Assembly (NCBI GenBank): GCA_958295485.1
Contig: OY282354.1
Location: 2,812,042 to 2,876,041 of the forward strand
Source: an uncultured Gammaproteobacteria bacterium
GTDB taxonomy: Bacteria > Pseudomonadota > Gammaproteobacteria > Eutrophobiales > Eutrophobiaceae
DNA length: 64,000 bases
Direction: 5' to 3'
This document shows positions 1 to 43,890 of the stretch, piece by piece (the stretch's first letter is position 1; every line of letters begins with the position of its first letter). A model generated the notes under the pieces. The model was not told the DNA's origin and did no database searches. It saw nothing but the letters and a program-made list of their open reading frames with translations. The position numbers and the translations under genes are program-made.

Positions 1-865
1 CGGCGTGGCGCTGTCGGGTTGGACATTTCTCGCCCTCATCACCGGCACGCTTGCCGAGATCTGGGGCATCATGGTGGCGGCGCTCGTTCTGACAGTCATT
101 TCCTTTATCGATGATATAAGACATGTCCCGCTGTTGCTGCGGTTCGCCGGACATATCATTGCCGTTGCTTTCGGACTTACCCTTTTGCCTGATACGGCGC
201 TGCTTTTCGGAGGATTGCTGCCGTCCTGGGCGGATCGGCTGGTGACCGGCGTTGCCTGGGTGTGGTTCATTAACCTTTTCAACTTCATGGATGGAATCGA
301 CGGGATCACGGGTGTCGAAACCATCGCGGTGGCGGGTGGTCTCGCCACCGCGTTGTCGCTCATGGCTTTGAGCGGGGGCGGTGACTGGTCGATGACGCTG
401 CCGGCTGCCGTGCTGGCCGGCGCGGCCGCGGGTTTTCTTATGCTCAACTGGCATCCGGCGCGCCTGTTCCTGGGCGATGCAGGGAGTATTCCCCTCGGCT
501 ACCTGTTGGGCTGGCTGCTTGTCTGGACCGCCTGCGTAGCGGGCCTTTGGTGGCTCGCGTTGGCGTTGCCGTTGTACTATTGGGCCGACGCCACGACGAC
601 GCTGTTGGCCCGTGGGGCGCGGGGGGAGAAAATCTGGCGCGCCCATCGCCGGCACGCCTACCAGGTCGCAGTACAGGCGGGAGCGAGCCACGCCACCGTT
701 GCGGGATTCATTGCCCTGGTCAATGTCGCGCTAGTCCTCTTGGCGCTGCTGGCAGTGGCTGGGGTGATCCCCGTTTGGCCAATGATTGCCCTGGCCGTCG
801 CCCTGACCTCGATAGCGCTGTGGCGCCTTCGCCACTGGCCCGACAAACAAAGCGGTCTCAATTAA
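1..865 (+). CDS. polyprenyl-phosphate N-acetylhexosamine-1-phosphate transferase (WecA/WbpL/MraY family), 5'-truncated at window edge
   Basis: The ORF is open to the window start. NFMDGIDG and LFLGDAGSIPLGY motifs are characteristic of the MraY/WecA family. Many predicted TM helices. Confidence 0.8.
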   Translation, partial: GVALSGWTFLALITGTLAEIWGIMVAALVLTVISFIDDIRHVPLLLRFAGHIIAVAFGLTLLPDTALLFGGLLPSWADRLVTGVAWVWFINLFNFMDGIDGITGVETIAVAGGLATALSLMALSGGGDWSMTLPAAVLAGAAAGFLMLNWHPARLFLGDAGSIPLGYLLGWLLVWTACVAGLWWLALALPLYYWADATTTLLARGARGEKIWRAHRRHAYQVAVQAGASHATVAGFIALVNVALVLLALLAVAGVIPVWPMIALAVALTSIALWRLRHWPDKQSGLN

Positions 866-899
866 ATGCTTTATAAATCCAAGACATTGGTCGCTTGCG

Positions 900-2564
900 A
901 TGCCCTTGACTGACGATAAAGCCGCGCTCTTCATCCATATTCCCAAGTGCGCCGGCACAAGCGTGGAAATCGCCATGGGGTATGGCCATCGGTACCCGAC
1001 GTTGGGAGAATCAAGAACTGCCACGACACCGGACTACGATGATTTGTTCGGAGGCGGATTACAACACCTTTCCATGCGTGAAGTGAGTGAAAACTATTCG
1101 CATTGCCTGACCCCGGTCAACCTGCGATTTGCAATCATTCGGCATCCCATTGACAGGATTATTTCCGTATACGGTTGGCAAATATACCGGTTTGCCCGCG
1201 ATAACTTGCCCTCCACGCAGACCCTGTCCGGGGAATTTGAAGACTGGTTCGATGAAACCCTTCCCTTTCTGGAAGACAACTCGGTATTGGCGGATCCGCT
1301 TCAAGGTATATTGAGCGCCGAACACGCTTTCGATACACCGGTAATCAACGAAGAAAAAGGGCGCCACCTCATGCCGCAAACCGGCTTCATCTATAATCGC
1401 GGGAAGATAGACGTGGATTTGCTGATAAATTTCGACTCCGTCTCCGAGACTCGGGATATATTGAAAAGTTTCGGGATCAACGTCGGCAGCCTGCCTCACA
1501 GGATGAAGTCCATCAACGTCGCCGAGGTTAAAAGAAGTGTCTCGGAAAAATGTCGGAAACGAATCATGGACTTGTATCATTATGACCTTGAGCTATATGA
1601 AAATCTTCAGGGCCGGGCCTGTGTGGCGACTACGCCAATCGGCGCGGGCGCCGGGCCGGTGACTTCTTTCCCGCGCTCGTCAAAAGGACCGGGTTCCGAA
1701 AATAATATCCCCAAAAGACTATTCATGTATTGGCATCAGGGTTGGGACAACGCGCCGGACATCGTCAAACGCTGTGCCGCAACGTGGCAAAAGCACAACT
1801 CAACCTGGGACATCAACCTGTTGGATGCGACAAACATTGCCGGGAAAGTCGAACTTCCAGCCGCTGTAAAGACGTTGCAGCTGCCGCTCCCTGCGCTTTC
1901 GGACGTCATAAGGATATGCCTGCTCAAAAGGTACGGTGGGGTTTGGGCGGATGCCACGCTCTGGTGCACGCGACCGCTGGATGACTGGATCGAACCTGTT
2001 TGCGCTCGCAACGGTTTTTTCGCTTACGACAAACCGGGCCCCGATCGCCCCATCAGCAGCTGGTTTTTGGCCGCCGGCGCGAATTGTCGAATCATCGACC
2101 TTTGGCACTCCTCAATGCAGCATTTGTTGACAAAAACGCGAGCATACGCTCAATACGATAAGTGGTTCGACAATAAGCAGAAAGGTTGGCTGATTAATGC
2201 GGTTTCCAACCTGTGTATGAGCTACCTCCTGCTACGCTTCAAGTATGGAAAATTGTTGATGCCAACATCTGAAAATCCCGGAGGCAACAACTATTTTTGG
2301 TTTCACTACCTTTTCAGGGATTTGCTGGACCAGGATAGTGAATTTCGTCACCTCTGGACGTCCACTCCCAAGATAAGCGCCGACGGCCCTCACCTGTTGC
2401 AACATACCGGGCTCTTGAACCCGGCAACAGAACGAACCGATTTCGTTATCAGAAACAGATTTTCAAACGTGTTCAAGCTGACGCGTCGTGAAACTTTTCC
2501 TGAAGACATTGCCGGCGCGGTTCTGGATACCCTTTACCGCTCCGAAGATATTGTCAGGTACTGA
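900..2564 (+). CDS. two-domain fusion: carbohydrate sulfotransferase (N-terminal) + capsule-synthesis/OCH1-type glycosyltransferase-like domain (C-terminal)
   Basis: The N-terminus has the IHIPKCAGTS 5'-phosphosulfate-binding motif of Golgi-type/Sulfotransfer_2-like sulfotransferases. The C-terminal half (from about aa 260) has W..GWDNAP...W...N..WDINLLD and LKRYGGVWADATLWC blocks recalled from Caps_synth / DXD-sugar-binding GT families. Confidence 0.6.
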   Translation: MPLTDDKAALFIHIPKCAGTSVEIAMGYGHRYPTLGESRTATTPDYDDLFGGGLQHLSMREVSENYSHCLTPVNLRFAIIRHPIDRIISVYGWQIYRFARDNLPSTQTLSGEFEDWFDETLPFLEDNSVLADPLQGILSAEHAFDTPVINEEKGRHLMPQTGFIYNRGKIDVDLLINFDSVSETRDILKSFGINVGSLPHRMKSINVAEVKRSVSEKCRKRIMDLYHYDLELYENLQGRACVATTPIGAGAGPVTSFPRSSKGPGSENNIPKRLFMYWHQGWDNAPDIVKRCAATWQKHNSTWDINLLDATNIAGKVELPAAVKTLQLPLPALSDVIRICLLKRYGGVWADATLWCTRPLDDWIEPVCARNGFFAYDKPGPDRPISSWFLAAGANCRIIDLWHSSMQHLLTKTRAYAQYDKWFDNKQKGWLINAVSNLCMSYLLLRFKYGKLLMPTSENPGGNNYFWFHYLFRDLLDQDSEFRHLWTSTPKISADGPHLLQHTGLLNPATERTDFVIRNRFSNVFKLTRRETFPEDIAGAVLDTLYRSEDIVRY

Positions 2565-2632
2565 TTTGCCAGGCGCGAGACAGGCATGATTTTCAAACAA
2601 ATTCCGGGTTCCCACAGCGAACGTCGCTGACG

Positions 2633-4267
2633 ATGATGCGAATCCACGAACACTTGCTTGATTTCTTTATGGCGCTTTTTGCGCTGTCAAGCCTGACGCT
2701 ATGGGTAATTATCGTGGGCGGGGGGTCGTTCAGCGTCTACGCTGTCCTGGCGCTGGCAGCCCCGCTGGTTTCCGGTTACCTGGTCATGGTAAACGGTCGA
2801 AAGCATATCCCGGCGGCGCCCCCGGAACCTGTGGCCGAGGGCTACGGCAATCGCTTCAGGGCTGAGTCCGTTGCAATCTTTGTCCTGCTTCTTTTTATTT
2901 TCTTTTCGGAATCCAGCCTGATCATGATTTCCCTCCTGCTGATCGCGCTGTTTCTGCTCCTGCGGCAAACGGAGGTCTGTCCGCGGCCTTTTACCCCACC
3001 TTCAACCATGGAAAAATCACCATTCATGCTTATCGCCGCAGTGGTCATCGCCGTTTCCTATACGTTGATTTCACATCGGCCCACTCAAGACGACGCGCTC
3101 TACCTGTTTTTCGGACTGCTGCCTCTCGATCAGCCTCACTTGGCATTTAATCTCCTGCCAATCAAGACCTGGTATGACGATGGCTGGGTACTGGTCAGTT
3201 ACTCGACCATCGAAGCAGTCGTTTCATATTGGACCGGGGCTGATTTTCTAAAAATATACTACCTCGTTGTTCCTGCCTTGGCGGCCATGCTGTCCGCGCT
3301 CGCCTATTACGGGTTGTTTCAGAAGATCAGCAGTGACTATGCAGGCATGTTGACGCTTATGGCCATCATCATCCTGATATTGTGGGGCGATGGAAACCGG
3401 AGCCCCGGAAATTTCGCATTCGCTACCTTAGGCATTGGCAAGGCAATGTTTTATGCAGTGATCTGCCCTTATCTTTTCAGTTCGGCAATCGGTGTCTTTA
3501 CCGGTCTCCCAGGCAGCAACCTTCGTTTGGCGATGGCAAGCATTTGCGGCATCGGCTTGACCCAATCCGCTATCATCCTGCTCCCCCTGTTTTTTACAGG
3601 CATGATTTTGGCAGGGTGGCTGGTTTACAGGGAGCCACCGAAACGCGCGCGCTACCTGCCCTTTCTGGTGGGGTTGACTGTGTTCCTGACGCTGGGCGCC
3701 AGCGTGGTGATTTACCTGGGGAAAATTCCCATCGGCATTACCCGGGACTCCGGGCTCGTGGAGGCCCTTGATACCGCCTTCTACGACGGTCTGCGCGGAC
3801 CAATCGGCATCGCTTCCTTCGGCTTGTTGCCGCTGCTCGCGCACAACGCCACCAAACATAAAGCGGTTATCGCCGTGAGCGCGGGATTATTGTTGGTCGC
3901 GTTAAATCCTGTCACGGTCTTTCTCGCCGGACAAATCGCCTGGTCATTGACTTGGCGTCTGCAATGGTTGCTGCTGTTAGCCGGAGCGGCAGCCGCAGGC
4001 ATCTTCCTTACAGCCGATTTCATCTCCCGCGGCAAACCGTCTTTACGAGCGCTGCTTTGCGCTTTTGGTTTGATCGGATTCGCCATGCTGGGTCAGACAA
4101 CGTTTTCCATCTCGAACGGCAACCGTATCGGTATCCCCCAGATCAAGACGCCAGCCACCATAGATGGCGTTTTCGAACGTAACTATCGCAACCACTACAG
4201 GCTCCGGGACCACATGGAATATCGCCTGGAAAACGGGCGTATTTGCATGACGAATGGCTGCTACTGA
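2633..4267 (+). CDS. large polytopic inner-membrane protein (about 14 TM), function unknown; possibly Wzy/ArnT-like polysaccharide polymerase or glycosyltransferase
   Basis: 544-aa ORF made almost entirely of hydrophobic helices, with no soluble catalytic motif recognised. Its position is between a sulfotransferase-GT gene and ugd in a glycan locus. Confidence 0.35.
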   Translation: MMRIHEHLLDFFMALFALSSLTLWVIIVGGGSFSVYAVLALAAPLVSGYLVMVNGRKHIPAAPPEPVAEGYGNRFRAESVAIFVLLLFIFFSESSLIMISLLLIALFLLLRQTEVCPRPFTPPSTMEKSPFMLIAAVVIAVSYTLISHRPTQDDALYLFFGLLPLDQPHLAFNLLPIKTWYDDGWVLVSYSTIEAVVSYWTGADFLKIYYLVVPALAAMLSALAYYGLFQKISSDYAGMLTLMAIIILILWGDGNRSPGNFAFATLGIGKAMFYAVICPYLFSSAIGVFTGLPGSNLRLAMASICGIGLTQSAIILLPLFFTGMILAGWLVYREPPKRARYLPFLVGLTVFLTLGASVVIYLGKIPIGITRDSGLVEALDTAFYDGLRGPIGIASFGLLPLLAHNATKHKAVIAVSAGLLLVALNPVTVFLAGQIAWSLTWRLQWLLLLAGAAAAGIFLTADFISRGKPSLRALLCAFGLIGFAMLGQTTFSISNGNRIGIPQIKTPATIDGVFERNYRNHYRLRDHMEYRLENGRICMTNGCY

Positions 4268-4369
4268 ATGCGACGATAATCCGCAAGGGCGGGCCCCTAC
4301 GGGATTTAATGTCTCCTGCCCGTCTGAACCTGAACACCCCTTTTGCAGGAATTCCCGCTGCCAGGCAAA

Positions 4370-5674
4370 CTAACGGCCAACGCAAAAATAGTCAAATCCT
4401 GCCTCGCGCATCAGCTCGGGTTCATAAACATTGCGCAGGTCGATAAATACATTGCCGTGCATTTGCTTTTTGATTTCTTCCAGGTCCATGCCCCGATAAG
4501 CATTCCATTCCGTCATCAACACGACTGCATCCGCCCCGGCTAACGCTTCATGCATATCATTAAAAAATATGACGGTTTCGGGCAAAAGCGCTTTTGCCTC
4601 AGCCATGCCTTTTGGATCATGCGCATGTATCCTTGCGCCGTTTTCAATCAACTTTGGCAGGATGGACAGTGAAGGAGCGTCCCGCATGTCATCCGTCTCC
4701 GGTTTATAGGTCAGACCTAATACAGCTATAGTCTTGCCGATTTCGTTGCCCTCCAATGCTGTCCTGATCTTGCTGATCATTCTCGTCTTTTGCGCCTCGT
4801 TCACTTCGATAACCGATTCAACAATGCGGCTGGTCAAATTGTTTTCCTGCGCCATCCTTACCAGCGCCCTGGTATCTTTAGGGAAACAGGAACCGCCATA
4901 GCCGGGACCCGGGTGAAGGAATTTTCTACCTATCCGGCCATCCAGTCCCATACCTTTGGCAACGACGTGCACATCGGCATTCACAGCTTCGCACAGGACA
5001 GATATTTCATTGATAAAACTTATCTTTGTAGCCAAAAATGCATTGGAGGCATACTTGATTAACTCGGCGGTTTCCAGGTTTGTGATAAGAACGGGTGTTT
5101 CAATCAGGTTCAAGGGACGATACAAACGCTGTATTAATGTCTTTGCCCGCCCTGACTCTACTCCGACCACCACCCGGTCCGGATGCATGAAGTCAGATAT
5201 GGCAGCGCCCTCGCGGAGAAATTCAGGATTGGATGCAACGTCAAAATCAGCGCCTGAATTGACTTCCCTGATAATGCGCCAGACATTTCTTGCCGTGCCT
5301 ACGGGTACTGTGGACTTATTGACAATAACAGTATAGCCACTGAGATATGGGGCGAGGTCTTTTACGGCTTCATAGACGTAGCTTAAATCCGCATGACCAT
5401 CGCCCCTGCGACTGGGGGTGCCTACGGCAATAAAGACCAGGTCACTGTCAGGAATGGCGTCTTGATAACTATCGGTAAATTGCAATCTTGATTGCTTGAA
5501 ATTGCTTGCTACCAAATCATCAAGACCTGGCTCATAAATGAACATCTCACCCCTGTTGAGTTTGTTGATTTTTTCCGAATCGGTATCGATACAGGTGACG
5601 CTTGCGCCAAATTCAGCAAAACAAGCGCCTGAAACCAGGCCGACGTAGCCAGCCCCAACCATTGTGACATTCAT
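4370..5674 (-). CDS. ugd: UDP-glucose 6-dehydrogenase (nucleotide-sugar dehydrogenase family)
   Basis: N-terminal MNVTMVGAGYVGLVSGACFAEFG Rossmann motif. GGSCFPKD catalytic cysteine block. Length 434 aa is typical of Ugd. Confidence 0.8.
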   Translation of the reverse strand: MNVTMVGAGYVGLVSGACFAEFGASVTCIDTDSEKINKLNRGEMFIYEPGLDDLVASNFKQSRLQFTDSYQDAIPDSDLVFIAVGTPSRRGDGHADLSYVYEAVKDLAPYLSGYTVIVNKSTVPVGTARNVWRIIREVNSGADFDVASNPEFLREGAAISDFMHPDRVVVGVESGRAKTLIQRLYRPLNLIETPVLITNLETAELIKYASNAFLATKISFINEISVLCEAVNADVHVVAKGMGLDGRIGRKFLHPGPGYGGSCFPKDTRALVRMAQENNLTSRIVESVIEVNEAQKTRMISKIRTALEGNEIGKTIAVLGLTYKPETDDMRDAPSLSILPKLIENGARIHAHDPKGMAEAKALLPETVIFFNDMHEALAGADAVVLMTEWNAYRGMDLEEIKKQMHGNVFIDLRNVYEPELMREAGFDYFCVGR

Positions 5675-5709
5675 AGCAGTTACCCCTGTCTCCTATCACG
5701 CATTTCTTG

Positions 5710-6705
5710 TCATACCTTGTAATAATCTTTATACCAGTCGATGAATTTCTTTATGCCCTGTTGAAGTGAAACGCGTGTTTCAAATTTGAAATCTTTCAGC
5801 AACCTGGATGAGTCAGACAGGGTGTTGATAACGTCGCCCGGTTGTGCCCCCACAAATTGAATGGCAGCCTCCCTGCCGATTTCAGCCTCGAGAATTTTAA
5901 TGTAACCCATGAGATTCACCGCGTTTTGATTACCGATGTTATAAATCCTGTGTCTTGCCGGGCCGCTTGCAGGCTCAGGCCTGGTTGCATCCCTGGCCGG
6001 AATCTTATCCGTTATTCTTACCGTAGCCTCAACCGCGTCATCAATATAGGTAAAATCCCTTTGGTGCTTGCCCTGGTTGAAAACCCGGAGCGGTTCGCCG
6101 GCGTATATTTTTTTAGTGAAAAGCATGAGTGACATGTCCGGCCTGCCCCAGGGACCGTATACGGTAAAGTACCGCAGGGCGGTCATCGGTATGCCAAACA
6201 GGTGACTGTAGCTGTGCGCCATTAATTCATTTGCGCGTTTCGTGGCCCCATAGAGTGAAACCGGATGTGAAGCCGGGTCTGATTCTGAAAAAGGCATTTT
6301 CTCATTTGCGCCGTAAACCGAACTTGATGAGGCATACACCAGGTGTTCCACGCCTGTTGCGCGACAACCTTCCAGGATATTAAAAAAACCCGCGATGTTT
6401 GAATTAATACAGGTATGGGGGTGAGTAATCGAGTATCGGACACCGGCTTGCGCGGCCAGGTGGACTACGCGTTCAGGGTTAATCTCCTTGAACAGGTTTT
6501 CCACCTGGTTTGCATTCGTAATATCCAGTTTTTTGAAACTGAATTTTTCAAAGCCTGAAATGGCAGCCAACCGGTCCTGTTTGAGCTTGACGTCATAGTA
6601 GTCATTCAAATTATCGACCCCGATTATTTCATCTCCTCTCTCCAATAATAGTTTGGCCAATGCCGCGCCGATAAACCCGGCGCAACCGGTAACAAGAATC
6701 TTCAT
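5710..6705 (-). CDS. NAD-dependent nucleotide-sugar epimerase, UDP-glucuronate 4-epimerase-like
   Basis: MKILVTGCAGFIGAALAKLL Rossmann start and YASSSSVYG...YGATK catalytic motif of the extended SDR family (GalE/Cap1J/LpsL type). Adjacent to ugd. Confidence 0.8.
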   Translation of the reverse strand: MKILVTGCAGFIGAALAKLLLERGDEIIGVDNLNDYYDVKLKQDRLAAISGFEKFSFKKLDITNANQVENLFKEINPERVVHLAAQAGVRYSITHPHTCINSNIAGFFNILEGCRATGVEHLVYASSSSVYGANEKMPFSESDPASHPVSLYGATKRANELMAHSYSHLFGIPMTALRYFTVYGPWGRPDMSLMLFTKKIYAGEPLRVFNQGKHQRDFTYIDDAVEATVRITDKIPARDATRPEPASGPARHRIYNIGNQNAVNLMGYIKILEAEIGREAAIQFVGAQPGDVINTLSDSSRLLKDFKFETRVSLQQGIKKFIDWYKDYYKV

Positions 6706-6924
6706 TTACGCTTAAACCAGGAAAATATGATCCATGTTAAATACAGCTTGATATTTTGGCGTCCCCTGGGGAATTCGCGGAATCCCCAGATGGAATCGCC
6801 AGGCGCTCAGGATTATTGAATACCGGCCAACACACGGCTGCTCCGACAATAAATCTAAAGTCGAGTTGCAAGATCGAGTAAATATAGTAACAGATAAGGT
6901 CTGGACTATCTCACGCTCTCACAA

Positions 6925-8709
6925 CTAATGTGAATTCCTGGGCGTCCCATGGCGCTCAATAATCCGAACATATTCCTCATCTAACTCTAAACATGCTCCC
7001 CTGTCCAGCTGCCCTACTGTCTTTCGATAGAGCTCCTGCCAGGGTGTCGCATTCTCAAGCGCCTCTTTCTTCAATTTCGCTTTGCGGAGTTCCAATTCAG
7101 CAGATTCCACCAGCAGGTTTACACTGTTCGATACCAAGTCAATTTCCAGCATATCGCCATTCTCGAGTACAGCCAGACCGCCACCTGCGGCGGCCTCTGG
7201 AGACACGTTAAGGATCGACGGGCTTGCCGAAGTCCCGCTCTGACGTCCGTCGCCCATACAGGGCAGTTCGCGGATTCCCTGTTTAACCAGTATGGCGGGC
7301 GGCAACATATTGACCACCTCCGCAGAGCCAGGATAGCCCACCGGCCCACAGTTGCGGATAACCAGAATGCAGTGCTGATCAATATCCAATGAAGGATCAT
7401 CTATACGCTGGTGATAGTCTTCCGGCCCCTCAAAAATGACCGCTCTTGCCTGGAAACAATTTGGGTGTTGCGAATGGCTCAGATATTTTTCTCGGAACTC
7501 AGCGCTGATCCCGGACTTTTTCATTAGTGCGGAATCGAACAGGTTTCCGGACATAACGGCAAAGCCAGCGTTTTCCATCAAGGGAGCCGACACTGGTTTA
7601 ATCACTTTGTTATTGCCAGGGAAGCAGCCCGTTATGTTCTCGGCCAGTGTTTTGCCGGTTACGGTCAGGGTGTCACCTTCAATCAACCCTGCAGCAATCA
7701 GTTGGTTTAGAACAGCGGGCATGCCGCCGGCTCGGTAAAAGTCTTCGCCCAGGAATTCCCCTGTGGGCTGGCAGTTCACGATGAGAGGGATATGTTCTCC
7801 ATAGTTTTGCCAATCCGTGATATTTAAATCCTGTAATCCGAGCTGTTTGGCCATAGCCAGCCAATGCACAGGCGCATTGGACGACCCGCCGATGGCGCTG
7901 GTCACCACAATGGCATTATGGAATGCATCGGAGGTCATGATACGGCTGGGGCGAAGATCCTCATGTACCAGTGCAACGCTGCGAAAGCCGGTCTCATAGG
8001 CCATCTGCGCCCGCGCCTGGTAAGTTGCGGGAATCGCAGCACAGCCCGGCAACGACATGCCCAGCGCCTCAGCCATGCAGTTCATGGTCAGGGCAGTACC
8101 CATGGTATTGCAATGACCGACACTGGGACTGGAGTCGCGAACGTTGCGCATAAAGCCTTGATGATCGATTTCCCCGGCGGCGTATTGCTCGCGTGAACGC
8201 CAGATCACCGTACCGGAACCGATTCGCTCATCACCTTGCCAGCCGTTGTTCATGGGGCCGCCGGATAGCACGATAGCGGGGAGGTCAACAGCAGCAGCGG
8301 CCATCAAAGTGGCTGGTGTGGTTTTATCGCAGCCGGTAGTAAGCACCACACCATCAAGCGGATAGCCGTGCAGTATTTCCACCAATCCTAAAAATGCCAG
8401 ATTGCGATCCAGGGCGGCAGTGGGACGGCGACCCTGTTCATGAACAGGATGCACCGGAAACTCCAATGGAATACCGCCTGCGTCACGAATCCCGTCACGC
8501 ACCCGTTTTGCCAGTTCCAGGTGATGACGATTACAGGGCGCCAGATCGCTACCGGTCTGGGCGATGCCAATAATGGGTTTGCCGGACTGTAATTCCCCCG
8601 GGGTCAGGCCGTAGTTAAAATATCGCTCGACATAGAGCGCCGTCTGATCCGGCTGCCCGGGATTGTTAAACCAGTCTTCGCTACGAAGTCTTTTCTTACG
8701 TGAAGCCAT
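6925..8709 (-). CDS. IlvD/EDD-family sugar-acid dehydratase (L-arabinonate/D-xylonate/galactonate dehydratase type)
   Basis: 594 aa. N-terminal RSEDWF...PIIGIAQTGSDLAPCNRHH...TTGCDKTTPA...SGGPMNNGW blocks closely match recalled L-arabinonate dehydratase (AraC/XylD) sequences, including the Fe-S cluster cysteines. Confidence 0.85.
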   Translation of the reverse strand: MASRKKRLRSEDWFNNPGQPDQTALYVERYFNYGLTPGELQSGKPIIGIAQTGSDLAPCNRHHLELAKRVRDGIRDAGGIPLEFPVHPVHEQGRRPTAALDRNLAFLGLVEILHGYPLDGVVLTTGCDKTTPATLMAAAAVDLPAIVLSGGPMNNGWQGDERIGSGTVIWRSREQYAAGEIDHQGFMRNVRDSSPSVGHCNTMGTALTMNCMAEALGMSLPGCAAIPATYQARAQMAYETGFRSVALVHEDLRPSRIMTSDAFHNAIVVTSAIGGSSNAPVHWLAMAKQLGLQDLNITDWQNYGEHIPLIVNCQPTGEFLGEDFYRAGGMPAVLNQLIAAGLIEGDTLTVTGKTLAENITGCFPGNNKVIKPVSAPLMENAGFAVMSGNLFDSALMKKSGISAEFREKYLSHSQHPNCFQARAVIFEGPEDYHQRIDDPSLDIDQHCILVIRNCGPVGYPGSAEVVNMLPPAILVKQGIRELPCMGDGRQSGTSASPSILNVSPEAAAGGGLAVLENGDMLEIDLVSNSVNLLVESAELELRKAKLKKEALENATPWQELYRKTVGQLDRGACLELDEEYVRIIERHGTPRNSH

Positions 8710-24762: not shown

Positions 24763-25401
24763 CTAAACAGGTATGTATTTATTCGCCTCGAGATAACCGA
24801 TTACCTCCGCGACTGATTCTGCAACTGTTTTCTCGCCCGTCTTTATCCGCAACTCCGGGGCATCGGGCGCTTCGTAGGGGGCGGAAATGCCGGTAAATTC
24901 AGGTATTTCCCCGGCGCGGGCCTTCCGGTATAAACCTTTGACGTCCCGGCTTTCGCATACCTCCAGCGACGCGTCCACGTACACCTCTATAAACCCCCCC
25001 GCCGGGTGTCTTTCCCGAACCAAATTCCGGTCCGATTTATACGGTGAAATAAAAGCCGAAAAAACAATCAACCCGGCATCGGTGAACAACTTGCACACTT
25101 CGCCGATGCGACGGATGTTCTCGGTCCTGTCTTCGGGTGAAAACCCCAGGTTGGAATTAAGACCATGCCGTACATTGTCGCCATCAAGAATGAATGCCTT
25201 GACGCCCCGCTTGACCAGGGTGACTTCACAGGCCCTGGCTATGGTGGATTTGCCCGCGCCTGACAGGCCCGTAAACCAGACCGTAACCGGTTTATGGCCC
25301 ATGAGGCCGGCGCGTAGCTCCGCGGCGACCAAGCTGTCACTCCAGGCTATATTTTCACTCTTTGGTTGTTGCGCTGATATGGTTTCTTTATTTTTCATCA
25401 T
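24763..25401 (-). CDS. cysC: adenylylsulfate (APS) kinase
   Basis: VWFTGLSGAGKSTIA P-loop and DGDNVRHGLN, FISPY blocks of APS kinases. 212 aa. Its start overlaps the stop of the upstream gene. Confidence 0.9.
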   Translation of the reverse strand: MMKNKETISAQQPKSENIAWSDSLVAAELRAGLMGHKPVTVWFTGLSGAGKSTIARACEVTLVKRGVKAFILDGDNVRHGLNSNLGFSPEDRTENIRRIGEVCKLFTDAGLIVFSAFISPYKSDRNLVRERHPAGGFIEVYVDASLEVCESRDVKGLYRKARAGEIPEFTGISAPYEAPDAPELRIKTGEKTVAESVAEVIGYLEANKYIPV

Positions 25402-26997: not shown

Positions 26998-27819
26998 GTG
27001 GTTATTATACCGGCAACCATCGAATATAGAAGAATGAACAGAAAAAACCCAAACAAGAGAAACAGGGAGATACGGTTATTGCCCCTTAACGACATGCCGA
27101 TGGCGCTGCCCGGGGATAACCTGGCGGAATTGCTGCTGGCGCGTTTTCAGGAGACCCCTCCCAAAGACAACGATATTATTGTTATCGCGCAGAAGATTGT
27201 GTCAAAGGCGGAGAACCGCTACGTCAACCTGGCGGATATAAGGCCCTCGGACGATGCCATGCAACTGGCCGCGGAAACGGGCAAGGACCCGCGCCTGGTG
27301 GAATTGATACTGTCCCAGTCGAAACGGGTTGTCAGGCGACGGCGAGACGTCTTAATCGTGGAGCACGAATTGGGATTTGTGCATGCCAACGCCGGCATCG
27401 ATCATTCCAATATCCCACAAAATGATAACAGGGAAATGGTCTTGCTGTTGCCCGAAGACGCCAATGCCAGCGCGCGTGAAATCCATGCTGAAATCAAAAA
27501 CCGCCTGGGCATTCACCTTGCCGTCATTATCAATGACAGCCTGGGTCGAGCCTGGCGCAACGGGGTTACAGGTATCGCCATAGGCGCGGCCGGCCTGCCC
27601 TGCCTGTTGAATCTTTGTGGTGAGAAAGACCTTTACGGGAATACTCTCAGGGCGACCGAAGTCGGTATCGCCGATGAAATAGCCGCCGCTGCCTCGCTGG
27701 TCATGGGGCAGGCGGCGCAGGGAATACCCGCAGTGTTGGTCAGGGGGCTTGAATTCAGCGACCGAACCGGGGATGCCTCTGCCCTGATAAGAGCCCCGGA
27801 CAAGGACTTGTTCAGGTAA
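26998..27819 (+). CDS. cofE: coenzyme F420-0:L-glutamate ligase-like protein (CofE family)
   Basis: LPLNDMPMALPGDNLAELL, IIVIAQKIVSKAE and GFVHANAGID blocks recalled from CofE. The real start may be the internal Met at 27034. Confidence 0.65.
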   Translation: MVIIPATIEYRRMNRKNPNKRNREIRLLPLNDMPMALPGDNLAELLLARFQETPPKDNDIIVIAQKIVSKAENRYVNLADIRPSDDAMQLAAETGKDPRLVELILSQSKRVVRRRRDVLIVEHELGFVHANAGIDHSNIPQNDNREMVLLLPEDANASAREIHAEIKNRLGIHLAVIINDSLGRAWRNGVTGIAIGAAGLPCLLNLCGEKDLYGNTLRATEVGIADEIAAAASLVMGQAAQGIPAVLVRGLEFSDRTGDASALIRAPDKDLFR

Positions 27820-27828
27820 TAGTTAGCG

Positions 27829-28779
27829 ATGGGTAAATCAATTTTAGCCCTGTGTGGCGGGGTGGGGGGGGCAAAATTAGTTCAGGGACTCGGTAAAACG
27901 CTCCGGCCGGGAAACCTGTTTGTTTTCGTCAATACCGGCGATGACTTTCATCACCTGGGCCTGCCCGTCTCGCCTGATCTCGACACGGTTATGTACACGT
28001 TGGCGGGAGTGGCAGACCAGGCCAAGGGCTGGGGCATCGCCGGTGAAACCTGGCATTTTATGGAAATGATTTCCCGGTTTGATGATTTATCCTGGTTCAA
28101 TTCAGGTGATAAAGACCTTGCCACCCATTTATACAGGGCACGGGCGGCAAGGGAGGGCCTCAGGCTGGATGAGATAACCCGGTCACTCAGCCGTTCATTC
28201 GGCATCGAACACAACATTATCCCCATGAGCAATGATCCCGTGCGGACACTGGTGGTCACCGACCGGGGAACGCTCGCCTTCCAGGATTATTTTGTCCGGT
28301 TAAACTGCTCACCCAGGGTGAAAGCGATCAAATTCGCCGGTTGCGACAAGGCCCGCGTCCCTGGGAGCTTTACCGACCTGCTCAACGAAAACAAGCCGGA
28401 TGCAATCATCATCGCCCCTTCGAATCCGCTCCTGAGCATAGCCCCCATCCTGTCCCTGAAAGACGTGCGTTCGGCCCTGCAATCAGCTTCCGTTCCCATT
28501 GTCGCCGTCTCACCCATTATCAGCGGAAAGGCACTGAAAGGGCCGACGGCCAAAATCATGGAGCAAATGGACATGCCCGTAAATAACGTATCAATTGCCG
28601 AATTTTATCGTGATTTTTTAGATGGATTGGTCATCGATAACAAAGATGAACATGAAACCGGTGAAATCGAGAAACTGGGCATCAGGGTAAAAACCACCGG
28701 CACACTCATGAATTCGATACGGGACCGGATTGCTTTAGCTGAAACGACCATCCGGTTTGCCGACTCGCTAAGCGCCTAA
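27829..28779 (+). CDS. cofD: 2-phospho-L-lactate transferase-like protein (CofD / UPF0052 family)
   Basis: N-terminal ILALCGGVGGAKLVQGL glycine-rich motif of CofD/YvcK. 316 aa. Translationally adjacent to the cofE-like gene. Confidence 0.7.
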   Translation: MGKSILALCGGVGGAKLVQGLGKTLRPGNLFVFVNTGDDFHHLGLPVSPDLDTVMYTLAGVADQAKGWGIAGETWHFMEMISRFDDLSWFNSGDKDLATHLYRARAAREGLRLDEITRSLSRSFGIEHNIIPMSNDPVRTLVVTDRGTLAFQDYFVRLNCSPRVKAIKFAGCDKARVPGSFTDLLNENKPDAIIIAPSNPLLSIAPILSLKDVRSALQSASVPIVAVSPIISGKALKGPTAKIMEQMDMPVNNVSIAEFYRDFLDGLVIDNKDEHETGEIEKLGIRVKTTGTLMNSIRDRIALAETTIRFADSLSA

Positions 28780-29547
28780 ACGCTTTTCCCAGGCCACTTG
28801 ATTTCGACGGGCGTCCTGTATGAACGGCGACAGCCGGATCAGTTGGAGCACGAGCCGGTTGAGCAACGAGCCGGGAAATTTCAACGGGCGCAGCACGTCT
28901 AAAAACAGCACCACCCGCATGCCATCCGTATTGTTTTGCACGCGATGTTTATAAGTGTCATCAAAAACGATGCACCTGCCCTCTTCCCATGCAGTTGACT
29001 TATCACCGACCTCTATCCAACAATCCTCCCGCGGTTCAGGGACGATCAAGGCCAGGTGGCAGCGCAACAACCCCTTGTAGGGACCCCGGTGCCTTGGTAT
29101 GTGTTTGCCCGGCGCCAGAACGGAAAAAAAAGCCGTGAACATGCCGGGTATGTTTTCGATGATCCGCGTCGTTTCGGGACATTCATTACAGTTGCCGGCC
29201 ATTTTATAGCCATAGCCGTAGAGAAAATAAGATTTCCATTTATCGTCCCGGGTGATATTAGTTTGATCCCGTGAGATGTCCTGAAAGTTCGGGATGCGTT
29301 CAGGGGCTTTCAGCAACCGGTCCAGCTCCTTGCGAATCACCTTCCAGTCGGACTCCAGCAAGTCAACCCAGGCAAATTCCGCGGGGGACAGGAAGGGGGT
29401 ATCGCCAACCGGTGAGAATTTAACTAAAATCCGCTCTATCCGTTTGATTATCCACAATCCCAGGGCCACGCTGATACGGTGCTTTTTCTTCCCCTTGCCG
29501 GGCGGCGGGGCTGGCGGCGGGACAGCGGGATTCATCCGATCCATCAT
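28768..29547 (-). CDS. aspartyl/asparaginyl beta-hydroxylase-family Fe(II)/2-oxoglutarate oxygenase (LpxO-like)
   Basis: Central HIPRHRGPYKGLLRCHLALIVPE block resembles the AspH/LpxO cupin core. 259 aa. The 3' ends of this gene and the cofD-like gene overlap convergently by 12 bp. Confidence 0.55.
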   Translation of the reverse strand: MMDRMNPAVPPPAPPPGKGKKKHRISVALGLWIIKRIERILVKFSPVGDTPFLSPAEFAWVDLLESDWKVIRKELDRLLKAPERIPNFQDISRDQTNITRDDKWKSYFLYGYGYKMAGNCNECPETTRIIENIPGMFTAFFSVLAPGKHIPRHRGPYKGLLRCHLALIVPEPREDCWIEVGDKSTAWEEGRCIVFDDTYKHRVQNNTDGMRVVLFLDVLRPLKFPGSLLNRLVLQLIRLSPFIQDARRNQVAWEKRLGA

Positions 29548-31612: not shown

Positions 31613-32674
31613 CTAAGCGACCCGTTGCAGCCACAGGCGGGCCGTCAATATCAGGATAAATCCGGGCGCCAACGCAACCAACGCATAGTTCAAGTCAAGT
31701 AATAATCCTGCATTGGATAAAATTTGATCCAGCAGGTATACGCACATCCCGGTGATGCCTGCCAACACCAGGCGATTGCCAAGCCCCGTCCGTATCGAGC
31801 CGAAGACAAAGGGCACTGACAACAACAACATGGCGATCATGATAAAACCAGCGCCTAATTTTCTCCAAAAGACCAGCGAAATCTCATCGTGTTGTTGCCC
31901 TGTTTGCTTCAGGTAACGAATATGCTGGTATAAATCCAGCGGCGACAAACTTTCTGTCGGCTTGGTCAAGGTGGTAACCTGGTCAGGGCTTAAAAAGGGC
32001 TGCCAGCTCACTTGCTTCATATGTTTCGTGTTCGCCTGAGAAACGTAGAATTCCTTCTTTGTTACGTTATTCAAGTTCCATTTTTCATCGCTGATTATTT
32101 CTGCATTCTCTGCATGCATATATTCGGAGAGCAAACCCTTCTCATCCATTTTAAAAATTTCTATGTCTTTCATGTAGGAAGCATGTATCGACTCTCCTAT
32201 TCTCAAAACATGATTTTCATCGCGCGTCCATATGCCCAGGTCCTCTCCCAATTCCGCGCTCTTGTTCAGCGCCTCCGAACGATAGGCGATCGCTTTCTGT
32301 TGCAATAAGGGCGCGCCAAATTGCTCCAGCAGAACCAACAGCGCCAACAAGCCTATGCCGACCTTGAATGATGCAAGACTGAGTTTCGCGGGAGACAGCC
32401 CGGCGGCGCGCATGGAAATAATTTCCGAATGAATCGCCAAGCGCCCCAGCGCAATCACGTTGCCAATCAGCGCGATAAACGGAAGTAGTTGAATTAGCCT
32501 CCTGGGGAGCAATAACAAGACAAAGTAGAACGCATCCTGCGTGCGATAATATCCCTCGCCAACGTCATCCAACTGCTCAATCAGGTCCAAAAAGCTGAAA
32601 AGGGGTAGTAAAACAGCCGCCGCGATTAATAATCCCTGGCCAATCTGCCGCATCAGGTATTTTTCAATTATCAT
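31613..32674 (-). CDS. lptG: LPS export ABC transporter permease LptG
   Basis: YjgP/YjgQ-family permease. The start (MIIEKYLMRQ...) overlaps the lptF stop in an ATGA arrangement. Confidence 0.75.
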   Translation of the reverse strand: MIIEKYLMRQIGQGLLIAAAVLLPLFSFLDLIEQLDDVGEGYYRTQDAFYFVLLLLPRRLIQLLPFIALIGNVIALGRLAIHSEIISMRAAGLSPAKLSLASFKVGIGLLALLVLLEQFGAPLLQQKAIAYRSEALNKSAELGEDLGIWTRDENHVLRIGESIHASYMKDIEIFKMDEKGLLSEYMHAENAEIISDEKWNLNNVTKKEFYVSQANTKHMKQVSWQPFLSPDQVTTLTKPTESLSPLDLYQHIRYLKQTGQQHDEISLVFWRKLGAGFIMIAMLLLSVPFVFGSIRTGLGNRLVLAGITGMCVYLLDQILSNAGLLLDLNYALVALAPGFILILTARLWLQRVA

Positions 32675-33741
32675 CCAAAAACTTTTCTCTTGAACCCCGG
32701 GGAAAGAAATACAAGAACGACTGCCACCATCAAAAGATGCAACCACCAAATACCAGGAAATTCATCAACCGCGCCTTGTTCCACCCAGGTCCGGGCGACG
32801 CCACTGAGGTTATAGTAAACCGCGAATATCAAGGCAGCCATAAAGGCTTTTTCATTTTTCCCCTGCCTGGGTGATGAGCGACTCAGCGGAATGGCAATCA
32901 GCGCAAGCAATATGGTTACTATGGGCCTGGACAGCCTCCATTGGACTTCTGCAATATCCGACGGGATATCGGAATCGAGCAAGCTGGAAGTCGCTGCCGC
33001 TTTACGCTTATACCCGATACTGATCGCAAGATCTTCCTGGAACTTGACCAGCTTATCAAAATCAACCAGCTCATCGTCCGCCGAATTCCGCTTCAACTTG
33101 TACAGGCGACCATCCTTCAAATGCACTTGAAGTCCCTGGCCATCCTCCCCTTGGCGCTGGTTCGCGGTCACGGCCATGATGATTTCACTGTTGTTTCCAT
33201 TACGCGTGTAATGAAACACGTTGGATACCTCGCTGGTTGCTTCAGCCTTGTCATTAACGTAAACAACGGCGCCGGTTTCTTCGTTGCCATAAAACCGGCC
33301 CGGCTGAAACCGGTCGATGTTCAAATCGGCATTTGCCCTGGCATCAAGAATATAACTGCTCTCGTATGCCCAAGGCCGTCCTTGCAAAGAAAGCGCCCCT
33401 ACCACCATGCCGATTGGCACGGCAATGATAACTATTGAATGAATGATATGCTTGTCACCGCCGCCGGCCGCCTGCAAGGCGACTATCTCCTGGTCACGGT
33501 GCAACCTGCCTAATCCCATCACTATGGAAACATAAAGAGCGACAGGGATTAAAACTTCGAGGGCTATAAACGTCTTTAATAAAATCAATTTGAACATGAA
33601 ATAGATGCCCAGGGTCTCAGCAACCGCTTCCGCCAGGTATCTTGCGCTGCTAAAGCAGGCAAACAAGGCGACTAAAATGATTAATACGAAGCTGAAGGGC
33701 TTGAGTACTTCGAAGATGATATAACGTTCGATATTGGCCAT
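32671..33741 (-). CDS. lptF: LPS export ABC transporter permease LptF
   Basis: YjgP/YjgQ-family permease with an N-terminal MANIERYIIFEVLKPF and a periplasmic beta-jellyroll insert. Paired with lptG. Confidence 0.75.
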   Translation of the reverse strand: MANIERYIIFEVLKPFSFVLIILVALFACFSSARYLAEAVAETLGIYFMFKLILLKTFIALEVLIPVALYVSIVMGLGRLHRDQEIVALQAAGGGDKHIIHSIVIIAVPIGMVVGALSLQGRPWAYESSYILDARANADLNIDRFQPGRFYGNEETGAVVYVNDKAEATSEVSNVFHYTRNGNNSEIIMAVTANQRQGEDGQGLQVHLKDGRLYKLKRNSADDELVDFDKLVKFQEDLAISIGYKRKAAATSSLLDSDIPSDIAEVQWRLSRPIVTILLALIAIPLSRSSPRQGKNEKAFMAALIFAVYYNLSGVARTWVEQGAVDEFPGIWWLHLLMVAVVLVFLSPGFKRKVFG

Positions 33742-42612: not shown

Positions 42613-42621
42613 CGGGTTAAA

Positions 42622-43542
42622 ATGTCGAAGCAGGTGGCGCTGACAGGAGCCACAGGCTTCATTGGAAGGAACCTGCTCACTTCACTGGTTAAATCAAGGG
42701 TCCCGACGCGGGCGTTAACGCGCCGGCAACAAACCGGGTCTGAATTGTCCGGGCTTGTTCATTGGATCAACGGCGATTTAAACAATCATTCCGCATTAAA
42801 TGAATTAGTCGAAGGCTGCGCTTCCGTAATACATTGCGCCGGCGTCGTCAGGGGAAATTCACTGGAAGATTTTTTGGAAGTCAACCTCAAGGGAACTGAA
42901 AATCTTCTTAATGAAATCTGCAAAAAGGCATATAAACCAAAATTCCTCCTGATCTCATCGCTCGCCGCGCGCTACCCTGATTATTCCTGGTATGCCCAGA
43001 GTAAATCACTGGCGGAAACATTGCTGCTGTCGGAGAAGCATTCCGGGTTGCCCCGGACGGTCTACCGCCCAACCGCGGTTTACGGTCCCGGCGATAAGGA
43101 AATGCGTCCCTTATTCAGCGCCATGCGTCATGGTTTCTTGTTGGCGCCGAAAGTAGCTGACTCAAGGATCAGCCTGCTCCACATTGATGACTTGGTGAAT
43201 GCCGTCTTAAAATGGTTAACGGCAAAAAATACCGGGGGCATATTTGAGTTGGACGACGGTACTGAAGATGGTTACCAATGGAAAGACATCGTGGCCATTG
43301 GACAGGACACCTGGAATAATTCGATAAAACAGGTCCGGGTTCCAATTCCATTATTAAACACTTTCGCCCATATTAATCTCCTGCTGGCCAGGATTTTTCG
43401 GTATCCGGCCATGCTGACTCCGGGTAAAATCAATGAGATTACCCATAAGGATTGGGTATGCGATAATGCTCCCTTGACAACCTGTCTGGGATGGGAACCA
43501 AAAATAAATTTAATCGATGCGATTAATGGGGCTTCAATTTAA
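42622..43542 (+). CDS. NAD(P)-dependent epimerase/dehydratase-family reductase (ceramide/3-ketosphinganine reductase candidate)
   Basis: ALTGATGFIGRNL Rossmann motif and YAQSK catalytic YxxxK. 306 aa. Confidence 0.7.
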   Translation: MSKQVALTGATGFIGRNLLTSLVKSRVPTRALTRRQQTGSELSGLVHWINGDLNNHSALNELVEGCASVIHCAGVVRGNSLEDFLEVNLKGTENLLNEICKKAYKPKFLLISSLAARYPDYSWYAQSKSLAETLLLSEKHSGLPRTVYRPTAVYGPGDKEMRPLFSAMRHGFLLAPKVADSRISLLHIDDLVNAVLKWLTAKNTGGIFELDDGTEDGYQWKDIVAIGQDTWNNSIKQVRVPIPLLNTFAHINLLLARIFRYPAMLTPGKINEITHKDWVCDNAPLTTCLGWEPKINLIDAINGASI

Positions 43543-43628
43543 TCCATTTAGAGGCAGCCCTCGCGCCGGCCCTGGACAGGGCCGGCGCATACCAAGGTCG
43601 GGGATGATTTAAATTCGGGGAATGACCT

Positions 43629-43883
43629 ATGCCTTCAAGTTATGAAGAAATATCGACAAAGATCACGAGTGAGCTATCCGGCCTCGTTCCGCCGGGCGTC
43701 AGATTAAGCGATGATTCCGAACTGGCTACGGAGCTCGGGCTGGATTCATTCAAGGTCCTGGACCTGTTGCTGGACATCGAAGATGAGTTCGACATAACCA
43801 TGCCCGTGAATCTCCTCGCAGACGTTCACACCGTTAAAGACCTGGTGGATAAGATCCACGAAGTAGTCAATTCTTCCCCATGA
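43629..43883 (+). CDS. acyl carrier protein
   Basis: 84 aa with an ELGLDSFKVLDLL phosphopantetheine-attachment-like DS motif and the acidic helix-II pattern. Confidence 0.8.
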   Translation: MPSSYEEISTKITSELSGLVPPGVRLSDDSELATELGLDSFKVLDLLLDIEDEFDITMPVNLLADVHTVKDLVDKIHEVVNSSP

Positions 43884-43890
43884 GCGCCCC

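Follow-up and report, generated by a model that had tools for sequence, protein, structure and literature searches.

E. coli O9a WbdA/WbdD and Klebsiella/Raoultella WbbB fuse catalytic modules that act on an Und-PP-linked chain, and are encoded beside Wzm/Wzt. ABC-transporter pathways often modify the non-reducing end of the chain by such multi-domain enzymes, WbdD capping with phosphate/methyl and WbbB with Kdo. The modules are kinase/methyltransferase or Kdo-transferase domains, combined with coiled-coil rulers, and we know of no sulfotransferase module in enzymes of this type. Sulfotransferases do occur beside glycosyltransferases and export genes in the Synechocystis xss (synechan) cluster and in the Cobetia marina KMM 1449 capsule cluster, but there the two activities are described as separate genes (PMC8205485, PMC11766843). 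Recent papers restrict bacterial sulfated polysaccharides to cyanobacteria (PMC8205485; PMC13390465), although marine Gammaproteobacteria are known to make sulfated capsules from ABC-type clusters (PMC11766843).

The sulfotransferase family relevant here, PF03567, also contains the heparan sulfate 2-O/6-O-sulfotransferases and the CHST chondroitin/dermatan sulfotransferases. It is characterized by a 5'-phosphosulfate-binding strand-loop-helix with a conserved Lys, and by a 3'-phosphate-binding motif defined as PxxRxxS (PMC11625862). On the glycosyltransferase side, described relatives are the yeast alpha-1,6-mannosyltransferase Och1 and the pneumococcal PF05704 protein WciE, a retaining GT32 enzyme described as attaching an alpha-Gal branch at the cytoplasmic side (PMC10462825).

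In a stretch of 64,000 nucleotides from an uncultured gammaproteobacterium (hereafter the window), a sequence-only reading had proposed that a single polypeptide joins a carbohydrate sulfotransferase to a capsule-type glycosyltransferase. This was borne out (Table 1). The frame is uninterrupted, while the two other forward frames contain 20 and 24 stop codons, and a single T6 run is the only homopolymer of at least six bases. Codon-position GC is equal between the two halves, and within the range of the neighbouring genes. A database protein (P0001) is 100% identical to the 554-aa fusion, and four other assemblies carry copies of 552-554 aa at 96-98% identity.

Table 1. Features of the fusion gene and its surroundings; positions are those of the window.
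Feature	Position	Strand	Remarks
GT4-family polyprenyl-phosphate sugar-phosphate transferase (WecA/WbpL-like), C-terminal 286 aa	5..865	+	truncated by window start
Sulfotransferase-GT32 fusion ORF	900..2564	+	554 aa; stop codon included
Sulfotransfer_2 (PF03567) domain	900..1637	+	aa 1-246
5'-phosphosulfate-binding loop IHIPKCAGTS (Lys16)	933..962	+	aa 12-21; by sequence motif
3'-phosphate-binding motif IRHPIDRIIS (R81, P83, R86, S89)	1137..1166	+	by sequence motif
Disordered Gly/Pro/Ser-rich linker	1638..1694	+	aa 247-265; pLDDT <50
Putative Caps_synth / GT32 retaining GT-A glycosyltransferase domain	1695..2561	+	aa 266-554; by sequence and fold
WDINLLD	1806..1826	+	aa 303-309
GT32 core motif LSDVIRICLLKRYGGVWADATLWC	1896..1967	+	D351-A-T353 at DXD position
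LKRYGGVWADATLWC	1923..1967	+	aa 342-356
YFWFH block (Y465, W467, H469)	2292..2306	+	invariant in alignment A1
DUF6077-family polytopic membrane protein	2633..4267	+	544 aa; homologues annotated PF19554
Ugd, UDP-glucose 6-dehydrogenase-like nucleotide-sugar dehydrogenase	4370..5674	-	three UDPG_MGDP_dh Pfam domains
SDR nucleotide-sugar epimerase/dehydratase	5710..6705	-	Pfam Epimerase 204.5 bits
cysC, adenylyl-sulfate kinase (PAPS synthesis)	24763..25401	-	APS_kinase 226.5 bits

Two neighbouring genes joined through a frameshift or misassembly could give the same appearance. Frame errors do arise in such data, since in one 11x long-read assembly (locus L002, protein P0040) the two halves lie in different frames. 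That case is however the opposite one, a fusion disrupted by a frameshift: P0040 was rejected as a true stand-alone sulfotransferase, the GT32 part following it in another frame. With a clean frame and uniform codon-position GC in the window copy, and with over 50 independent clusters, drawn from many assemblies and from several phyla, encoding the same colinear protein, the merged-gene artefact was rejected, and we give it a negligible probability.

The whole protein was modelled confidently by AlphaFold (pLDDT 86.1, pTM 0.84), as two folded domains separated by a disordered linker, and no transmembrane segment was found in its 554 residues. Both domains scored above their Pfam cut-offs, and the IHIPKCAGTS, WDINLLD and LKRYGGVWADATLWC motifs reported earlier were all located in the ORF.

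In the N-terminal half, the match to Sulfotransfer_2 covers aa 5-234 (49.6 bits against a cut-off of 22, E 7.8e-13) and spans profile positions 7-250 of 252. Conservation was followed in an alignment of 32 fusions sharing 29-72% identity (A1). R81, P83, R86 and S89 are all invariant in it, Q55/H56 and R155/H156/P159/Q160 are invariant or nearly so, and IHIPKCAGTS is kept in all aligned fusions whose called N-terminus extends that far. Loss of this motif in proteins P0018-P0022 was considered and rejected: tblastn found query residues 1 onward encoded in the corresponding loci (L004-L006), so that the gene calls simply start late. The model of this half resembles HS 6-O-sulfotransferase, with the PAPS-sulfotransferase alpha/beta fold, at only about 15% identity to the structural match; a search by sequence against PDB chains gave chance-level matches only. 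This half is thus predicted to be a PAPS-dependent carbohydrate sulfotransferase. The phosphosulfate-binding motif had been called eukaryote-like. The motif is indeed present, but the label mirrors which members of the family are characterized rather than the origin of the domain. A horizontally acquired “eukaryotic” gene was rejected, the fusion being conserved in bacteria and having the codon-position GC of its neighbours. Compared with the heparan sulfate and CHST enzymes, the protein is bacterial and soluble, has neither type-II membrane anchor nor Golgi stem, and is joined to a glycosyltransferase. It also differs from the heparan sulfate N-deacetylase/N-sulfotransferase NDST, by a partner domain that is a glycosyltransferase instead of a deacetylase, by its sulfotransferase subfamily, and by its prokaryotic, cytoplasmic setting.

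The C-terminal half matches Caps_synth (PF05704, 135.9 bits against 24.5, E 2.3e-39) and, over aa 297-364, Gly_transf_sug (PF04488, 27.3 bits against 23). Its AlphaFold model has an Och1/SetA-like GT-A fold, whereas the search of PDB chains by sequence returned a marginal Och1 match only (E 0.22). In the phmmer alignment with Och1 (9n3s), GGVWADAT lies opposite GGIYSDMD. The canonical DXD is therefore absent: D351-A-T353 aligns with D-M-D of Och1, Thr replacing the second Asp, which distinguishes the fusion from Och1 and WciE, as do a helical insertion at aa ~397-448, including a hydrophobic stretch, and the N-terminal sulfotransferase. However, DxT/S was found in 128 of the 131 GT32-containing homologues retrieved, stand-alone members included. 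D-A-T is thus a subfamily variant and not a decay of the present copy, and metal-dependent catalysis is not to be taken for granted. D335, R338, G346, G347, W349 and D351 are invariant among the 32 fusions, the Y277-W282 block is invariant or nearly so, and the YFWFH block is a possible candidate for a metal or diphosphate ligand. From family and fold, this half would be a retaining nucleotide-sugar hexosyltransferase. Its closest structural relatives are toxin and effector glucosyltransferases, which would suit an enzyme whose acceptor for sugar and sulfate is a protein or small glycolipid rather than a polysaccharide; we hold such an acceptor to be very improbable.

The PAPS-binding and GT32 residues being invariant or nearly so in 32 fusions, both halves are under purifying selection. 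The clusters containing the fusion (more than 50 at 90% identity) come from Gamma- and Alphaproteobacteria, Desulfobacterota and Myxococcota. Among roughly 2,000 Caps_synth relatives, it was found in about 15 of the top 150 clusters at 50% identity. The architecture, first described as unusual, is therefore a minority one, but it recurs in several phyla: it is uncommon yet recurrent in many uncultured bacteria. Both orders of the two domains occur, with one GT-ST-ST case, and Caps_synth has further fusion partners in pyruvyltransferase, FkbM methyltransferase and GT8 domains. The two orders and the other partners fit a glycosyltransferase whose product is routinely decorated. Distant fusions lie in ABC-type or Wzx-type glycan loci, and some homologues lie outside glycan loci, for instance the 538-aa protein (L024) of the cultured Fundidesulfovibrio agrisoli SG106.

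Close relatives of the fusion include unfused orthologues of 313 aa. These retain the 5' leader of the fusion, its first ~9 codons and the C-terminal part of the linker. Judged from these remnants, they arose by in-frame deletion of the sulfotransferase domain, a new observation; L001 and L008 represent this type of allele. Since such alleles exist naturally, coupling is optional and not obligatory, and the GT32 half can do without its partner. The existence of a GT32 half on its own, the modest Sulfotransfer_2 score and the non-canonical DXD would also be expected if a single half were catalytic, the other having degenerated into a module for binding or scaffolding, such as a sulfotransferase fold that binds PAP(S) or a glycan and localizes the glycosyltransferase. 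But the PAPS-binding residues, the conserved His and the GT32 signature residues are kept in fusions with as little as about 29% identity, and DxT/S is the norm family-wide rather than a decay peculiar to the window copy. We consider a single active half quite unlikely.

Assignment of the neighbours was taken further than in the sequence-only reading. The gene fragment upstream matches Glycos_transf_4 (97.3 bits), its WecA/MraY NCBIfam matches being weak and every one below cut-off. The downstream polytopic protein shows some 12-13 peaks in its hydropathy profile and contains an SHRPxxDDALY block that is invariant. A profile search of this protein against PDB sequences gave no match, its AlphaFold model (pLDDT 40.8, from 22 closely related sequences) was too low for use, and our literature search found no paper naming DUF6077 or PF19554. 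Ugd holds at the subfamily level (TIGR03026, 478 bits against 190), its best equivalog TuaD staying under cut-off (532 bits against 700). The proposed UDP-GlcA epimerase did not hold at that precision: no NCBIfam equivalog reached its cut-off, leaving a generic SDR protein. A promoter and terminator scan of positions 1-7000 gave the same counts as shuffled controls.

The context of the gene was taken from orthologous loci. In L001, L003 and L008-L012, full-length GT4 orthologues (343-345 aa) lie immediately upstream of the GT32 gene and the DUF6077 gene comes after it, with a 4-nt overlap in L003; the epimerase and Ugd are found together near this trio in L008, L011 and L012. In L003 (73% identity), Wzm and Wzt are directly upstream of the GT4 gene, and a 1711-aa Sulfotransfer_3-GT1-methyltransferase protein and three further sulfotransferase genes surround the core. 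In L001 too, Wzm/Wzt immediately precede the GT4 gene; this locus also has a giant sulfotransferase-GT-methyltransferase protein and a sulfatase. The conserved trio, standing in orthologues beside Wzm/Wzt and more sulfotransferases, points to an ABC-transporter-type surface glycan locus, the type of export on which the Cobetia cluster also depends (PMC11766843). Wzm/Wzt are missing from the window, as the locus is truncated at nucleotide 1, in agreement with the earlier proposal of a surface-glycan locus reaching upstream past the window's edge. The portion inside the window has no second sulfotransferase. From this context, the surface glycan is probably sulfated.

Wzm/Wzt dependence of the orthologous loci, and the position of a distant fusion (P0038) directly downstream of ABC2_membrane and ABC_tran genes, bring to mind a chain-terminating cap: the protein would add and sulfate one terminal sugar at the non-reducing end, halting polymerization and setting chain length. 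The Wzt of L003, however, is only 251 aa long with a lone ABC_tran domain, so that it has no space for a cap-recognizing carbohydrate-binding domain. The adjacent 1711-aa protein combines sulfotransferase, coiled-coil, GT1 and methyltransferase regions, which makes it a better candidate terminator and the closest match to the WbdA/WbdD/WbbB class; the fusion has no coiled coil. In addition, fusions also occur in Wzx-type loci, which use no terminators, and the GT32 gene comes right behind the gene of the initiating GT4 enzyme, a position no less suited to an early step. A role as terminator is therefore unlikely in our view.

As claimed previously, an APS kinase is encoded in the window: cysC scores 291 bits with NF003013 (cut-off 163) and 252 bits with TIGR00455 (cut-off 139). 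It stands 22 kb from the fusion, between gltX and a 3-hydroxyacyl-CoA dehydrogenase, a housekeeping setting. Being unlinked, on the opposite strand and in that context, it is weak evidence for a role in sulfation, and could serve plain sulfate assimilation. No cysD, cysN, cysH, cysQ or sulfatase was found among the annotated window ORFs of at least 150 aa. The Cobetia cluster contains cysNC, cysD and cysQ, whereas the fusion locus has no linked PAPS genes.

The reading we prefer, with a probability of about 0.6, is that the fusion is a soluble, cytoplasmic, two-headed glycan-tailoring enzyme acting on a lipid-linked surface polysaccharide. The upstream GT4 enzyme would put a sugar phosphate onto undecaprenyl phosphate, and the GT32 domain, working at the membrane's inner face, would then use a nucleotide sugar to attach a sugar in alpha linkage. 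Using PAPS supplied by CysC and an ATP sulfurylase encoded beyond the window, the Sulfotransfer_2 domain would sulfate a hydroxyl of the sugar added by GT32, or of an adjacent residue. Lys16 would contact the 5'-phosphosulfate, and Arg81 and Ser89 the 3'-phosphate, His56 or His156 acting as catalytic base. Export of the completed chain would fall to a Wzm/Wzt transporter whose genes lie shortly before the start of the window. In such a scheme, the fusion of domains would hold glycosylation and sulfation on one intermediate. We infer both catalytic activities, the donor and the acceptor, the sequence of steps, and whether the glycan ends up as O-antigen or capsule; that the same enzyme both adds and sulfates that sugar, as first suggested, is plausible.

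Bacterial sulfated polysaccharides are a poorly understood field. If the two-headed reading is true, a single soluble polypeptide that glycosylates and sulfates would be a compact biocatalyst for defined sulfated glycans, and in uncultured bacteria the fusion would serve as a genomic marker of sulfated surface glycans. The alleles deleted for the sulfotransferase offer a natural comparison for what sulfation contributes. Judged from record names (RHO3_bin, CAR2_bin), the gammaproteobacterial clade is apparently sponge-associated. It is conceivable, though doubtful, that the protein is a self-contained add-and-sulfate module whose in-frame loss switches the glycan of a symbiont between sulfated and unsulfated, tuning host mimicry or discrimination, and that the trio is an undescribed three-gene module. 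If the association with sponges is real, comparing fused and deleted alleles may help explain what surface a symbiont shows to a host with abundant sulfated glycans in its own matrix.

The 554-aa fusion ORF and the three motifs quoted from it in the sequence-only reading were all recovered from the ORF listing and by motif location. With Pfam hmmscan, Sulfotransfer_2 (PF03567) matched aa 5-234, nearly the entire profile, at 49.6 bits (cut-off 22, E 7.8e-13). Caps_synth (PF05704) scored 135.9 bits (cut-off 24.5, E 2.3e-39) and Gly_transf_sug (PF04488) 27.3 bits (cut-off 23), while no NCBIfam model matched the protein. Both domain matches are thus far beyond chance, and the calls of a sulfotransferase and a capsule-type glycosyltransferase (GT32) are correct.

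Positions of the fusion, its motifs and the genes compared with it (window coordinates unless a related locus, L, is named)
Feature	Position	Strand	Remark
Fusion ORF	900..2564	+	ATG start, 554 aa
Motif IHIPKCAGTS	aa 12-21		in fusion
Motif WDINLLD	aa 303-309		in fusion
Motif LKRYGGVWADATLWC	aa 342-356		in fusion
GT4 initiating transferase	5..865		directly before fusion; truncated by window edge
DUF6077 polytopic membrane protein	2633-4267	+	544 aa; directly after fusion
1711-1749-aa protein	L003:2053-7188, L001:1-3499	-	N-terminal Sulfotransfer_3, coiled coil, GT1 domain(s), C-terminal methyltransferase; adjoins Wzm/Wzt
Unfused alleles	L001:8001, L008:10016, L011:9974		compared with window 870-930
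cysC		-	between gltX and a fatty-acid oxidation gene, 22 kb from fusion

An artefact, two genes merged by a frameshift or by misassembly, would yield the same architecture. The frame holds no internal stop (20 and 24 in the other two forward frames), its only homopolymer of at least 6 bases is a single T6 run, and codon-position GC is essentially equal in the two halves (0.53/0.39/0.60 versus 0.50/0.42/0.61). A 100% identical copy of the protein is present on a public 3.57-Mb contig, copies of 552-554 aa at 96-98% identity occur in four other assemblies, and more than 50 clusters (90% identity) encode a colinear protein. On these grounds the merged-ORF reading was rejected, an artefact being hardly credible, and the single polypeptide is borne out. 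An apparent stand-alone Sulfotransfer_2 gene, P0040 (L002:8001-9633), was rejected as split: GT32 sequence follows in a different frame. It is a frameshift-broken fusion (a pseudogene, or else an error of sequencing) and comes from a low-coverage, 11x long-read assembly.

In the AlphaFold2 model, for which 32 fusions were used (mean pLDDT 86.1, pTM 0.84), two domains are folded and the linker, aa 247-265, is disordered. Fold matches of the N-terminal half are PAPS-dependent carbohydrate sulfotransferases, namely HS6ST3 (8.9), 3-OST-5 (8.1), a bacterial sulfotransferase (8.0) and NDST (7.7), and Foldseek was in agreement on the glycosyltransferase half. Among fusions aligned at 29-72% identity, invariant or nearly invariant positions in the sulfotransferase half are the 5'-phosphosulfate-binding (PSB) loop with Lys16, Q55-H56, R81/P83/R86/S89 and R155-H156-x-x-P159-Q160. 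The third set makes up PxxRxxS, the motif by which a recent review defines the Sulfotransfer_2 family (PMC11625862). In the GT32 half they are Y277-W-x-Q-G-W282, S334-D335-x-x-R338, G346-G347-x-W349-x-D351 and Y465-x-W467-x-H469. Aligned with Och1, the DXD position reads D351-A-T353, Thr replacing the second Asp. This is not decay of the window copy, because DxT or DxS occurs in 128 of the 131 domain-containing homologues retrieved, fused and unfused alike; that one half is a pseudo-enzyme is quite improbable. With no transmembrane segment (peak 19-residue hydropathy 1.15), the fusion is predicted to be a soluble or peripheral cytoplasmic enzyme, suited to PAPS and nucleotide sugars.

The DUF6077 gene is followed by convergent genes for Ugd and an SDR epimerase. 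By tblastn over 50-odd related loci, the GT4, GT32 and 544-aa proteins form a conserved trio in a gammaproteobacterial clade (L001, L003, L008-L012), with Ugd and the epimerase near it in several of these loci. In the best orthologue locus, L003 (73% identity), the region that corresponds to sequence upstream of the window edge encodes, in divergent orientation, Wzm (ABC2_membrane), Wzt (ABC_tran, 251 aa) and a 1711-aa protein, and three more sulfotransferase genes lie downstream; L001 has the same core and a 969-aa sulfatase. This gene content supports, by synteny, the earlier supposition that the locus continues upstream. Synteny places the 1711-1749-aa protein immediately beyond the window's left edge, on the upstream side; it resembles a polymerase/terminator of the WbdA/WbdD or WbbB type, apart from its sulfotransferase head. 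Gene content thus points to a pathway that is most likely ABC-transporter-dependent and that, in relatives, involves heavy sulfation. Among distant fusions, P0038 directly follows genes of an ABC-2 transporter and has KpsS-like and rml genes nearby, the locus of P0020 is of the Wzx type and includes a Bac_transf initiator as well as a Sulfotransfer_1 gene, and P0058 adjoins Ugd and a GT29-like gene. GC varies along the window locus, 1-900 against 900-6700 (GT4 fragment 0.63, fusion about 0.52, DUF6077 0.54, Ugd/epimerase 0.48; window mean 0.53), a mosaic typical of recombining glycan loci. The window has a second glycan-like run (40861-46476, +), comprising an AMP-binding enzyme, an SDR epimerase, a class I/II aminotransferase and a Wzx-like Polysacc_synt flippase.

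The membrane partner was assigned to DUF6077 via the annotation of its homologues. Its hydrophobic segments number about 12-13, the SHRPxxDDALY block at aa 147-157 is invariant, and its C-terminal beta tail contains Cys. Its gene is always downstream of the GT32 gene within the trio, and close homologues are confined to the trio clade. Structure prediction was of low confidence (pLDDT 41), and neither PDB nor literature searches gave a lead.

The cysC gene, put forward earlier as a PAPS source, is a genuine APS kinase gene, but it is compatible with sulfation rather than specific evidence for it. Among annotated window ORFs of at least 150 aa, no cysD, cysN, cysH, cysQ, sulfate permease, sulfatase or second sulfotransferase was found. 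The sulfated-capsule cluster of Cobetia marina carries cysNC, cysD and cysQ internally (PMC11766843), whereas in the window only cysC was found among these ORFs, at a distance from the fusion. Elsewhere in the window, a CofE-like F420-0:gamma-glutamyl ligase (26998-27819, +) adjoins CofD (27829-28779, +), coenzyme F420 biosynthesis genes in an apparently gammaproteobacterial genome. A protein of the Asp/Asn beta-hydroxylase family (28768-29547, -), possibly LpxO-like, near the LPS export permeases LptF/LptG (31613-33741, -), confirms an LPS-bearing Gram-negative envelope. A 937-aa protein (34647-37460, -) combines RTX calcium-binding repeats with M10 peptidase regions of the serralysin type.

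We infer all catalytic steps of the following pathway, to which we give a probability of about 0.6. The GT4 enzyme would make an Und-PP-sugar, to which the GT32 domain would add an alpha-linked residue at the cytoplasmic face; for WciE, a characterised family member, addition of a branching alpha-Gal at this face has been proposed (PMC10462825). The tethered sulfotransferase domain, with PAPS as donor, would sulfate this residue or a neighbour, and Wzm/Wzt would export the product. The main alternative, a terminal capping role for the fusion, appears unlikely, and an acceptor other than a polysaccharide very improbable.

A word-indexed search yielded 167 relatives of the fusion; 134 sequences were compared by BLASTP, and 63 of the 134 have both halves. 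The commonest order is sulfotransferase then GT32. It is reversed in P0095, P0101, P0116 and P0118 (GT motif near aa 80, PSB near aa 242-260) and, by Pfam, in P0072/74/77/78, and P0081 has a GT-ST-ST arrangement; the two domains were therefore joined more than once. Other Caps_synth partners (pyruvyltransferase PF04230, FkbM methyltransferase PF05050, GT8 and TPR modules) suggest that the glycosyltransferase product is habitually decorated. When 1.84 billion 50%-identity representatives were scanned exhaustively with HMMER, 2,166 relatives were recovered at E <= 1e-10, with only about 15 colinear fusions among the best 150. The architecture is therefore recurrent and ancient, yet a small minority of the family: "unusual", as it was first called, holds for its share but not for its recurrence.

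Carriers include uncultured Gammaproteobacteria, Hyphomicrobiales, Rhodoblastus, Marinosulfonomonas, Desulfosarcina, Polyangiaceae and the cultured Fundidesulfovibrio agrisoli SG106. A literature search found no paper describing the sulfotransferase-GT32 architecture, and database labels are generic ("sulfotransferase family 2 domain-containing protein", "capsular polysaccharide synthesis protein"). Overall, the sequence-only observation was confirmed and its interpretation borne out in part. The fusion belongs to an uncharacterised, recurrent family, a variant among multi-domain glycan assembly and tailoring enzymes with no categorical novelty. The nearest genomes are labelled "MAG: Gammaproteobacteria bacterium", with one match to Candidatus Spongiihabitans, and several related record names are typical of sponge-microbiome bins; sponge association is a lead only. 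The window also encodes a small Sel1-repeat protein (51035-51541, +), a eukaryote-like repeat class often noted in host-associated bacteria.

Within the trio, unfused GT32 proteins (P0023-P0036) have 313 aa and are 63-73% identical to the window's glycosyltransferase half. They begin MPLTKDKT or MPLSKDKT, the fused ones MPLTDDKA (window) or MPLTNDKT (L003), and after about nine residues the unfused proteins continue directly with the linker and GT domain of the fusion (…PVTSxPRSSK..G.ENNIPKRLFMYWHQGW). In the DNA, homology of fused to unfused alleles covers about 30 nt of 5' leader and the first nine codons (ATGCCCTTGACTnnnGATAAAACCGCC), and the alleles diverge from about codon 10. Distantly related fusions of other classes likewise begin MP[LIV]… just ahead of the PSB strand, so that the first codons belong to the sulfotransferase domain. 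The unfused genes are thus most plausibly in-frame deletions that removed aa ~10-250. In a neighbour-joining tree of the GT32 domain, built without bootstrap, the unfused alleles branch from within the radiation of fused ones and are interspersed with three fused sequences. The genome OZ220714.1 has an unfused trio (L011) and, at another site, a fused paralogue (L004/L054). Since unfused alleles occur, the GT32 half does not depend on the sulfotransferase half for its function. As a consequence of such deletions, sulfation by the fusion module would be an optional, variable trait, present or absent within an otherwise conserved locus, and these natural alleles lacking the sulfotransferase domain make a biochemical test of the fusion attractive and worthwhile.
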